From NCBI GenBank assembly GCA_038248695.1, contig JBBRXE010000002.1, forward strand, positions 1 through 41,027: a stretch of DNA of 41,027 nucleotides. The letters run 5' to 3'. The notes under the pieces are model-generated. The model did not search any database, was not told the origin of the DNA, and saw only the letters and a program-made list of their open reading frames with translations. Both the position numbers and the translations under genes were made by a program. Positions 1,090 through 2,472 of this stretch are shown one piece after another. Source of the stretch: Candidatus Limnocylindria bacterium. GTDB taxonomy: Bacteria; Chloroflexota; Limnocylindria; QHBO01. How positions within the stretch are numbered: the first letter of the stretch is position 1; each line of letters opens with the position of its first letter.

Positions 1090-1557
1090 GATGGTTCTCC
1101 TTGTGCTTTGCAGAACGTTGCGAACACCAAAAGGACCGGGCAGCTCCACGAGGTGCGTTCGCGCTGTAAGCCACCTCGTTCGCCTTGTCGCCGCACGCGG
1201 TGCGGCCGAGTCCCCGGTCCGGGTGAGCGCTCATCAGAAACGATTCACCGGGCGGGCGCTCGCCGCCGGTGTCGACCGTTGGCGGGTGCGGCATCCCTCC
1301 TTTCTTTACTCAGCGCGGAGACGTTCCGCCACCGAATCGGGGAGTGAGGCCAGACCGTCGTCGGTCGCACCTGTGGAAGGTTGAGCTCCCTTTCAGAAAG
1401 CCGAGATCGGCGCGACGCAGCCGCCCCCACTGAGAGCGAGCCACGACCGGGCCGAGCGGCACATCGGAAGGAAGCGTTCCCCTTCTGCAGATGGACCAAA
1501 ACGACCGGCCGGGCCCGTCCTCGGGGTCGGGGCGGAGGCGGCGTGGTGTGCATGCGG
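1090..1557 (-). promoter_or_regulatory. Long conserved leader, copy 1 (fills most of the 504-nt HTH-Ubl intergenic region)
   Basis: Paralogous to 2005-2472. Shared blocks, as plus-strand coordinates copy1/copy2:
- cacgatggttctcc 1087/2002
- aaggaccgggcag 1131/2050
- ggcatccctcctttcttt 1290/2214
- cagcgcggaga 1311/2233
- ggagtgaggc 1341/2261
- aagccgagatc 1398/2313
- gagcgagccacgaccg 1434/2349
- tgcagatggacc 1486/2401

The hairpin stem acgaggtg/cacctcgt is conserved (1148-1179 vs 2068-2102), while its loop differs in sequence and length. Confidence 0.5.
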
Positions 1558-1593
1558 TGCGGGGTGCACGACCCGCACAACGCGCGTGAGCTG

Positions 1594-2004
1594 TTAGCGA
1601 AGGCCGAGGAGACGGTCGATGTCGGCCGCCTCGAGTTCCTCGTCGAGCTCACGCAGGTCGCGACGGATGGCACCCGCCAGCTCCAGTGCCTGGCGCCGCA
1701 GGCGCCACAGCTGCTCGCGTTGGCACCGCAGCCGCTCGTTGGGCTGTGGTGTGCCGAGGTAGTCCCCGACCGTTGGCAGGGCTGTCCGGATCTGGCTGAC
1801 CCGGGCGGCGCTGACGCCCAGGCGTCCAGCGATCTGGCGATTGCTGTAGCCGGCGTCGAGCAGCTCAGCGACCGTGTGCGCCTGGCCGATGAAGCGCAGG
1901 CTCGGTGACGGGCCGCGACCGTGATGAGCGGTCATGGTTCCATCGCCTGCAGCTCGCGCCTCACCCGGAGGCCGGCGCTGTCGCAGCTCCTCGTCGGTGT
2001 GCAC
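1594..2004 (-). CDS. Helix-turn-helix regulator (LuxR / sigma-70 region-4-like HTH) with C-terminal coiled-coil, 136 aa
   Basis: Track ORF 1594..2097, trimmed to GTG 2004-2002, which sits behind the conserved AAAGGAGAACCATC cassette. The HTH is LLDAGYSNRQIAGRLGVSAARVSQIRTAL. The C-terminus is heptad-like (LWRLRRQALELAGAIRRDLRELDEELE). Confidence 0.7.
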   Translation of the reverse strand: MHTDEELRQRRPPGEARAAGDGTMTAHHGRGPSPSLRFIGQAHTVAELLDAGYSNRQIAGRLGVSAARVSQIRTALPTVGDYLGTPQPNERLRCQREQLWRLRRQALELAGAIRRDLRELDEELEAADIDRLLGLR

Positions 2005-2472
2005 GATGGTTCTCCTTTGTGCTTTTCTAGGTATCGCGAACACGAAGCGAAGGACCGGGCAGCGCCGACGAGGTGCATTCGCATGCTTGCTTAGCACCTC
2101 GTTGGGCTTGATACCGCACGCGTGCGCGGCTGCGTCCCGGTCCGGAACGAGCGTTCGAATGAACGATCACCGGCGGGCGCTCGCCCGCGGGGTGATCGAC
2201 CGATGACGGTGAGGGCATCCCTCCTTTCTTTGCAGCGCGGAGATGTCCGCCACTGAGATGGGAGTGAGGCTTTGCCGTCGTCGAACGCACCTGCGAGAAG
2301 AGTCTCCCCGGGAAGCCGAGATCAGCCCGACGCACCCGACCTCCTTAGGAGCGAGCCACGACCGAGCCGATGCGAGCATCCGAGAAGGAGCGTTCCCTCG
2401 TGCAGATGGACCGATCGAGCGGCCGAGCCTGTTCCCGAGGTGGGGGCAGAGGCGCCGTGTGGTGTGCGTGCG
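2005..2472 (-). promoter_or_regulatory. Long conserved leader, copy 2 (5' UTR of the HTH gene)
   Basis: See copy 1. It lies between the predicted promoter at 2703-2746 and GTG 2004, which implies a ~690-nt untranslated leader. The 3' ~470 nt of that leader is the duplicated unit. Confidence 0.5.

Follow-up and report, generated by a model that had tools for sequence, protein, structure and literature searches.

A candidate family of very large leader RNA, present in two copies before helix-turn-helix and ubiquitin-like genes on a Chloroflexota conjugative element

The stretch of DNA analysed here, called the window throughout, comprises the first 41,027 nucleotides (nt) of contig JBBRXE010000002.1, from a Candidatus Limnocylindria bacterium of the Chloroflexota (assembly GCA_038248695.1), and is a conjugative element. 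Our subject is a pair of long leaders near its beginning, each directly 5' of a gene. Coordinates are positions in the 41-kb window; all the relevant genes, and the leader features described with them, lie on the minus strand. In minus-strand reading order the locus begins with an IS256/Mutator transposase, an open reading frame (ORF) called at 2740-4224 on the plus strand, and continues with a long non-coding stretch that leads into the duplicated core of leader copy B (2005-2475). This copy lies directly 5' of a gene for a helix-turn-helix (HTH) protein (1594-2004, GTG start at 2004), which is HTH_23-like, with a Pfam HTH_23 E-value of 3e-5 that is just under the cut-off. Leader copy A follows (1090-1593), made up of a core at approximately 1090-1560 and a short linker after the HTH stop codon, and is directly 5' of a gene for a ubiquitin-like (Ubl) protein with a ThiS-like beta-grasp (853-1089, GTG start at 1089; Pfam ThiS, E 3.6e-6). 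The latter is the first gene of a Ubl operon. Its neighbour, a gene matching Pfam Prok-E2_D, starts with the ATG at 760 and runs off the window beyond position 1.

The original prediction, made for this DNA from its letters alone, held that the regions 1090-1557 and 2005-2472 are paralogous, and they are. Copies A and B align over about 490 nt with 80% identical columns in a pairwise alignment, while a BLASTN search within the window with copy A as query recovers copy B at 75.4% identity over 487 nt (E 5e-72). Searches with nhmmer and with three covariance models find exactly two copies in the 41 kb. The models match copy B at 2415-2318 (5' domain, 64.6 bits), 2295-2182 (central domain, 64.0 bits) and 2147-1990 (3' domain, 127.6 bits), and copy A at 1500-1403 (63.9 bits), 1375-1261 (80.4 bits) and 1224-1075 (132.1 bits), respectively. 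The finer features listed by the prediction are there too: an 18-nt and a 16-nt block, AAAGAAAGGAGGGATGCC and AAGGAGAACCATCGTG, are each unchanged between the copies; the hairpin ACGAGGTG...CACCTCGT is present with loops of 16 and 19 nt, as is the hairpin GCGGA-n5/n4-TCCGC; and the GC-rich block GGCGAGCGCCCGCC occurs in both copies. The limits it gave are right for the repeat of about 470 nt but take in only part of the whole element, since the similarity passes through the ribosome-binding site (RBS) and GTG into the first six codons (VQTYED versus VHTDEE), and copy B is preceded by a further conserved 5' stretch of about 220 nt with a promoter (see below).

Relatives were gathered by scans of genome and metagenome contigs and by single-protein look-ups, and come from metagenome-assembled genomes of Chloroflexota and from soil and other metagenomes. 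Protein collections contained 68 homologues of the HTH protein, mostly called from an internal ATG and including 113-residue and 131-141-residue forms, and 16 of the Ubl protein. Leader homologues were found in at least 25 loci, and both copies are kept in at least 10 loci related to the window. A first group has the arrangement leader-HTH-leader-Ubl as in the window (L001, L002, L007/L009, L008, L013, L024 and L039), and the two-leader arrangement is partly visible on shorter contigs (L010, L011, L014, L022 and L025). In L026/L032 a single leader lies directly 5' of the Ubl gene, and there is no HTH gene. The same is true of a second group (L034-L038 and L081-L087), which has only sequence blocks in common with the first. 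A conserved non-coding stretch precedes the Ubl gene in all of the 12 distinct single-leader contigs examined (L026, L032, L034-L038, L081, L082 and L085-L087), and 233 homologues were recovered for the second group's E2 protein. With more than 200 E2 relatives, and a leader on each of those 12 contigs, the RNA family is probably large enough for covariation analysis and structure determination. Leader identity to relatives is 82-88% over aligned columns, near the E2 gene's 86-91%.

Beyond these loci, BLASTN searches in distant mode with the leader gave no match in plasmid and phage collections. An exact search of viral contigs for the invariant motif gave 36 matches, none accompanied by a leader according to nhmmer and all attributable to chance. 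The distant HTH homologues (L003-L006 and L015-L021) have no leader, so that the HTH family is wider than the RNA. One of them, at L003:3429-4339 (61% identity), has neither leader nor Ubl operon and sits in a different gene context, where it overlaps the end of a 197-residue gene adjoining an integrase.

The leaders are not protein-coding. The predicted absence of a shared long ORF is borne out: no frame on either strand is open in all leader copies, and indel lengths in first-group leader pairs are mostly not multiples of three (1931, 772 and 356 cases for remainders 1, 2 and 0, respectively). The alternative offered alongside the prediction, a short upstream ORF (uORF) of the form MPxPxxVD..GERPP, is rejected. 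Between the ATG and the GGCGAGCGCC block its frame survives in just 11 of 19 copies and is broken in the other eight, the ORF varies in length from 8 codons to more than 79, the ATG is missing in copy A of L001, and the GGAGG lies just 1-2 nt from the ATG. It is true that the ATG in GGAGGGAUGCC is almost invariant and that long open frames are present in this GC-rich DNA, as would suit leaders that encode one or more small proteins, through this uORF or through an opposite-strand frame. Set against the broken frame, the variable length and the pattern of indels, however, that explanation retains scarcely any probability.

No known RNA family accounts for the leaders, in agreement with the earlier failure to place them in one. 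Rfam 15 (4227 models, among them riboswitches, OLE, GOLLD, ROOL, HEARO, raiA and T-box), searched with cmscan, gave no match at the gathering threshold in the whole window. With E-values of up to 10 allowed on 700-2900 there were three chance-level hits only, of 13-19 bits against thresholds of 45-82, and the leaders of L026, L034, L081 and L085 gave none. The scan does work on this material: on L026 it finds a fluoride riboswitch (L026:4454-4516; RF01734, 48.8 bits), far from the leader and unrelated to it, preceding a crcB gene that closely follows the Ubl operon. The literature searched contained no description of the leader RNA. A scan of the leader region found no canonical terminator.

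How alike the copies are within and between loci bears on whether they are maintained for a function. Orthologous and paralogous leader copies are alike at about 70-80% identity, and those within a locus are usually no closer to each other than to orthologues, which argues that the conserved blocks are under constraint. An exception is L024, whose two copies (2494-2944 and 3383-3834) are 94% identical, implying occasional and recent gene conversion between copies. Parts of the core have been lost from copy A of L011 and copy B of L013, and the operon persists there. In L008 there is in addition a third, partial copy of the 5' domain upstream of leader B (L008:1705-1792; nhmmer E 1e-9; covariance model 37.7 bits, E 1e-4). 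The conversion in L024 and the losses in L011 and L013 are as expected if the arrangement were a neutral by-product, in which a segmental duplication brought in the HTH gene, gene conversion keeps the copies alike and only the promoter-distal RBS is functional. This we consider very improbable, because the single-copy leader is conserved, with compensatory changes, across groups that share sequence blocks only, so that the core is constrained whether or not it is duplicated, and because in most loci the copies are no more alike than are orthologues of different loci. Recent duplication with random drift, named alongside the original prediction as something that would refute it, may have played a part but does not suffice: both copies persist in lineages whose orthologous leaders are only 72-80% identical.

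Conservation does not stop at the duplicated core. Homology 5' of copy B reaches window position 2660 in most loci and approximately 2763 in the closest. An alignment of 13 lineages drawn from both groups has three conserved features about 250 nt upstream of the core, namely GTACAC-N6/7-GTACAC, TTGnnn and, 17-18 nt further on, TAnnGT. In the window the direct repeat GTACAC-N6-GTACAC occupies 2740-2757 (2757-2752 and 2745-2740), just upstream of the -35 box, and is a candidate operator. It is the sole match in the window, with none expected in shuffles, and its position is kept in the 13 lineages, single-leader loci included. The sigma-70-like promoter (2703-2731) consists of TTGCTT at 2731-2726, a 17-nt spacer and TAGCGT at 2708-2703; its position is likewise conserved in 13 lineages, and it scores below the threshold of the consensus scan (8/12). 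Together, repeat and boxes would make up a promoter with its operator, from which transcription would start near 2697. With the promoter at 2757-2703, the leader of the HTH gene would be about 690 nt long (2697-2005). The IS256-family copy (2765-4224) ends directly beside the GTACAC repeat and the leader promoter, and homology to L001 stops at about 2763-2765. The transposase ORF, with its start called at 2740, runs into the operator, so the ATG near 2884 is probably where it really begins.

Between the presumed transcription start and the core lies a 5' extension of about 220 nt (2476-2697), which is present once per locus, not duplicated, and has at least five hairpins and a long-range helix. 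A junction within it holds the 13-mer CACCUUACCAACC (2519-2531), predicted to be unpaired. This 13-mer is identical, or differs by one base, in every locus that reaches so far, in both groups, and occurs once per locus. The 13-mer includes ACCA and is similar to the beginning of the 16S anti-Shine-Dalgarno tail; no convincing pairing partner for it turned up in the rest of the leader. A reading of the CACCTTACCAACC motif as a promoter was rejected, since conserved structured sequence and a better promoter are located upstream of it.

To define a conserved fold, single sequences were folded independently by minimum energy, and pairs were then counted domain by domain against 500 shuffles and against slid controls. 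The sequences in these counts are related to one another. For the 5' domain and the central domain the alignments came from fitting to the model, which leans towards structure; that of the 5' extension was made with plain MAFFT, and the structure was predicted from the same alignment on which it was tested. Two other approaches were given up. Whole-length RNAalifold on a mixed alignment produced inconsistent long-range helices, was judged unreliable and was replaced by the domain-wise analysis, and an all-against-all scan of the second group for helices between column pairs was too noisy in such GC-rich sequence.

The 5' domain (copy A 1403-1500, copy B 2318-2415) consists of a hairpin with a GAGGA...UCCUC tip followed by a long hairpin, H4, of 20-30 pairs, and the same two hairpins emerged from 21 independent folds. 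Across 27 sequences 87.0% of cells are paired, and changes on both sides are seen at 16 of 30 pairs, compared with 8.3 in shuffles (reached by 0 of 500). The covariation score is 0.278 against 0.172 for shuffled and 0.06-0.09 for slid controls, and again no shuffle of 500 reaches it. The central domain (copy A 1261-1375, copy B 2182-2295) is a hairpin of about 100 nt with a GCGGA-loop-UCCGC tip, in which the GGAGGGAUGCC block, containing the mid-leader GGAGG, pairs with GGCUCGCUCC (GCUCC). The same architecture was obtained from 23 independent folds. Here 85.5% of cells are paired across 27 sequences; both sides change at 12 of 39 pairs, compared with 8.3 in shuffles (reached by 5 of 500), and double changes occur in 36 cells, compared with 15.8 (0 of 500). 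The score of 0.158 exceeds the shuffled value of 0.113, with 0 of 500 shuffles reaching it, and the slid values of 0.04-0.07. For the 5' extension, with 15 sequences, 94.8% of cells are paired, both-side changes affect 11 of 34 pairs as opposed to 5.6 in shuffles (0 of 500), and the score is 0.243 versus 0.142 shuffled (0 of 500) and 0.03-0.07 slid.

In all three domains, then, the covariation score is 2-5 times that of the slid controls, and homologues with compensatory changes, which the original prediction had proposed to look for, do exist. Individual matched changes can be picked out readily: CAUC:GAUG in the first group corresponds to CCGUC:GACGG in the second, GAGGA:UCCUC to GAGGC:GCCUC in L026, CCGGUCGC:GCGACCGG to CCUGGUCG:CGACCAGG, and GGUG:CACC to GGCU:AGCC. 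The leader has the conserved structure of a structured cis-regulatory leader RNA. The balance of G-U over A-C combinations, read on the gene strand, is 128:32 in the 5' domain, 67:73 in the central domain, 34:14 in the 5' extension and 89:41 in the 3' domain, giving 318:160 over the four domains and favouring the gene strand. The z-scores from folding of single sequences, -2 to -3, are alike on both strands and did not identify the strand. An alternative 'rod' fold of the 5' domain was also considered as the conserved fold and rejected, as it is impossible in L081, L085, L086 and L087. In the first group the 5' strand CCGCCCC is able to pair with the GGGCGGG of H4 (minus strand, 1403-1547 and 2318-2460), and the rod may be either a sequence accident or a lineage-specific alternative state.

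The 3' domain is the part that adjoins the start codon. In copy A a three-way junction spans 1133-1220. It is closed by a helix of GGACCGGG (1220-1213) and CCCGGUCC (1140-1133), inside which lie hairpins 3a and 3b; the 3' strand of the corresponding helix in copy B is at 2059-2052. The closing helix has 96.5% of cells paired in 25 sequences and is almost invariant, showing no covariation. It is kept in the second group, where the two enclosed hairpins are of unrelated sequence and still pair (CGAUC:GAUCG and GAGCAG:CUGCUC). A covariance model of the 3' domain, built on the two-leader group only, barely reached L026 (E 0.04) and did not reach the second group, and no single structural alignment could accommodate the 3' domains of both groups.

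Immediately 3' of this junction the Shine-Dalgarno (SD) sequence is itself predicted to be paired. The SD-sequestering hairpin of copy A (1097-1132) pairs UUUUGGUGUU... with ...AGCACAAGGAG and includes the SD sequence AAGGAG at 1102-1097 (2017-2012 in copy B). Its 5' strand UUCUUCGUGUU, directly 3' of CCCGGUCC, pairs with AGCAC/AACGC-AAGGAG. Pair types alternate between the copies (UA/UG, UG/UA, and UA versus GC), and the hairpin is kept with different sequences in L026 and L022; its tip is variable and able to form a GNRA-type loop (GC-GAAA-GC). On this comparative evidence an anti-SD:SD helix, as an expression platform that occludes the RBS, is kept in the two-leader group, L022 and L026.

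A further helix, which we call P-start, is proposed at 1074-1155 in copy A. CACCUCGUGGnnCUG, the 15-nt stretch immediately before CCCGGUCC, shows complementarity to codons 2-6, such that CACCUCGUGGAGCUG (1155-1141) would pair with CAGACCUACGAGG (1086-1074), and in copy B 2075-2060 with 2001-1989. In the first group these duplexes have energies of -17 to -26 kcal/mol, and matched changes are found in copy B of the window (U-G to G-C), of L001 and of L022. The second group has UCGYCUG:CAGRCGA in the same place. Pairing of the 3' end of the core with codons 2-6 thus appears moderately supported. In the first group P-start and hairpin 3b are mutually exclusive, as both use CCUCGU, and this exclusion would provide one concrete candidate for a switch. 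Formed together with the GGACCGGG:CCCGGUCC helix, P-start would make a pseudoknot enclosing both the SD sequence and the start codon.

The unit that has been duplicated comprises the core, the SD sequence, the start codon and six Ubl codons, and its attachment to the HTH gene is informative. In seven of ten two-leader loci (L001, L002, L007, L008, L013, L014 and L024) a short ORF of 25-27 codons (VQTYEDLHRCR...) begins at the copy-B start codon, and the TGA of this ORF overlaps the ATG of the HTH gene as ATGA (for example L008:2567-2650). Such an overlap is a classical arrangement for translational coupling. In the remaining three, the window, L022 and L039, the copy-B ORF is fused in frame and becomes an N-terminal extension of the HTH protein; in the window GTG 2004 is in frame with the internal HTH ATG at 1935. 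The ancestral form would be the single leader before the Ubl gene, which persists in many relatives. In the lineage of the window the core would have been duplicated along with RBS, start codon and six Ubl codons, with the HTH gene between the copies. The upstream copy would then drive the ATGA-coupled short ORF or, as in the window, the in-frame HTH extension, placing the HTH regulator and the Ubl operon under one translational gate.

We regard it as probable, with reservations set out below, that the leaders belong to a new RNA family whose very large members act in cis to gate the translation of the HTH and Ubl genes. The large cis-acting structured RNA reused within the operon, as first proposed, is supported by its presence in at least 25 loci, by compensatory changes and by pairing of the SD sequence. 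Transcription would start near 2697 at the sigma-70-like promoter, some 690 nt before the first start codon, and the RNA folds as a chain of conserved hairpins, with the 5' extension and its 13-mer followed by the core of about 470 nt (5' domain, central hairpin and three-way junction). The end of the core pairs with the SD sequence, and probably also with codons 2-6, which would bury the initiation region. The fold would set how often ribosomes start, and its equilibrium between closed and open forms would respond to some signal, which may be a ligand, a protein or a further RNA.

Several observations weigh against this explanation. The transcription start and the transcribed strand are both read from sequence features, and the central domain contributes no excess of G-U over A-C (67 versus 73). 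Two of the three covariation tests were made on model-fitted alignments, which are biased towards structure. Variation is almost absent from the helices of highest conservation (GGACCGGG:CCCGGUCC, 3a and 3b), which hence carry no covariation; taken whole, the 3' domain is paired in 85.7% of cells, compared with 37-49% in slid controls, and its covariation is not above shuffles because most of its pairs never vary. The pairing that sequesters the SD sequence is not clear in the second group, where P-start too is weak (z-scores of -0.1 to -1.3 against shuffles); in the first group P-start, at -1 to -3.5, does only moderately better than shuffles of this GC-rich RNA. Nothing in the analysis points to a particular ligand, pocket or partner, and the downstream genes (Ubl, E2, JAB, E1 and HTH) suggest no metabolite. 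Finally, 470-690 nt far exceeds the size of known riboswitches.

Size is also an argument for regarding the RNA as a functional non-coding RNA in its own right, comparable to OLE, GOLLD, ROOL, raiA or HEARO, for which translational control would be secondary or absent. It might serve as a scaffold, or as a partner of the Ubl/E1/E2 machinery or of a conjugation protein. A length of 470-690 nt and the number of helices fit the ornate RNAs better than riboswitches, the location on a mobile element is in keeping, the invariant unpaired 13-mer suggests a site for a trans-acting partner, and the mere hiding of an SD sequence would not obviously call for conserved 5' and central domains. The organisation of the duplicated unit nevertheless makes this unlikely in our view. 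It always ends with the SD sequence, start codon and first codons, the second copy has no promoter of its own, and the HTH gene is joined on by way of a short, translationally coupled ORF, an arrangement that makes sense only if the start site is the output. Nor does any Rfam family of the ornate class match. A possibility we advance tentatively, and believe in less than in the translational gate as such, joins elements of both: a class of ornate RNA of about 690 nt, specific to conjugative elements of Chloroflexota and with a portable 470-nt module, that senses the state of the element or host through the 13-mer and the start-codon pseudoknot. Arrival in a new cell would be one example of such a state, and activity of the Ubl conjugation machinery under its control another.

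The proposed translational leader resembles translational riboswitches, T-box elements and ribosomal-protein leaders in being a folded cis-acting 5' RNA whose 3' end pairs with the SD sequence and in which mutually exclusive helices are possible. In contrast to these, it is two to ten times larger, matches nothing in Rfam, has no identified ligand or partner, and consists of a 470-nt module that is reused in one operon, reaching the second gene via a coupled ORF. With OLE, GOLLD, ROOL, HEARO/omega RNA and raiA it shares a length of several hundred nucleotides, many helices, discovery through comparative genomics of uncultured or environmental bacteria and, as is often the case, residence on mobile elements; unlike them it ends in an RBS and start codon and has been duplicated as a leader. 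Few bacterial RNAs of such size and conservation are still undescribed, and each of those found earlier opened structural and functional work. Here the tie to a translation start gives an immediate handle on function. That a copy of the module continues to drive a second gene argues for a self-contained control unit, and the duplication shows how a regulator gene can be captured via a coupled short ORF. The RNA also precedes a bacterial Ubl conjugation operon on a conjugative element, so that the signal which opens the leader would tell when that system is needed.

The operon itself is seen in full in relatives, where it encodes the Ubl protein, Prok-E2_D, a protein of approximately 85 residues, a JAB-like protein and a ThiF-type E1. 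Operons of this kind, with prokaryotic Ubl, E2, JAB and E1 proteins, and the PRTRC (ParB-related, ThiF-related cassette) systems have been described by Iyer, Burroughs and Aravind (PMC1779556). The present operon is similar in its ThiS-like Ubl, Prok-E2_D, JAB-like and ThiF-type E1 proteins and in its place on a mobile element. It scores 23.2, 16.4 and 68.2 bits with the NCBIfam models PRTRC_A, PRTRC_B and PRTRC_ThiF, however, far below their curated cut-offs of 101.8, 131.45 and 144.75, and no ParB was seen. By these models it is not PRTRC, and it would be a distant relative at best. The likeness concerns the cargo and not the RNA, and no leader RNA for PRTRC or Ubl systems was described in the literature searched. 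When the operon was compared with the PADLOC models of defence systems, only the E1 protein matched, weakly (BilD, E 5e-10).

The conjugation genes lie on the same strand as the leader and upstream of it. On the minus strand there are a Replic_Relax relaxase (12507-13595), a DUF87 coupling-type ATPase (13564-15759), an M23/SLT cell-wall hydrolase (15844-16770), a VirB4/TraG-like ATPase (16767-18974), a T2SSE ATPase (24346-25647) and a PrgI/ParA-like protein (25644-27110), together with RcpC, TadE and two T2SSF genes of the Tad/type IV secretion system (T4SS) type, all within 12507-28210. The position beside relaxase and T4SS genes raises the question of whether the repeats might instead act as DNA, as Frpo/ssi-like single-strand promoters or priming signals on the transferred strand, before genes expressed early in the recipient. 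Elements of the Frpo type are structured, non-coding, up to approximately 350 nt long and repeated, several standing upstream of leading-region genes (PMC11541004). The present locus is comparable: structured non-coding DNA recurs before successive genes, and the locus closely follows the relaxase and T4SS genes, shares their orientation and adjoins a cargo slot that holds defence-type genes. Folded single-stranded DNA, too, would be expected to show long hairpins and compensatory changes in them.

Other features of the repeats render this reading decidedly improbable. A consensus scan of 700-2950 found no -35/-10-like hexamers in the repeats on either strand, their stems are approximately 65-75% G+C, and G-U (that is, G-T) outnumbers A-C two to one on the coding strand, whereas the fold of a single-strand promoter has to form in the template strand. 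Upstream there is a conserved double-strand promoter of the ordinary kind, the repeated unit includes the SD sequence and start codon, and the BLAST searches of plasmids and phages were without match. The present repeats thus differ from Frpo/ssi elements in being GC-rich, in lacking hexamers in their stems, in the wobble bias of the coding strand, in ending with SD sequence and start codon, and in having a conventional promoter upstream.

The cargo slot just mentioned extends over about 10 kb (2765-12500) between the relaxase and the leader promoter. It contains an RNase_T exonuclease (9475-10686, minus strand), a Type ISP restriction-modification gene in the form of two overlapping ORFs (5969-8353 and 8308-9243), which is probably frameshifted, a MazG/PRA-PH-like gene (4249-4725) and the IS256/Mutator transposase. 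In relatives the slot is occupied by a single variable gene, which may be HAD_SAK_2, Fic, NYN or SMODS.

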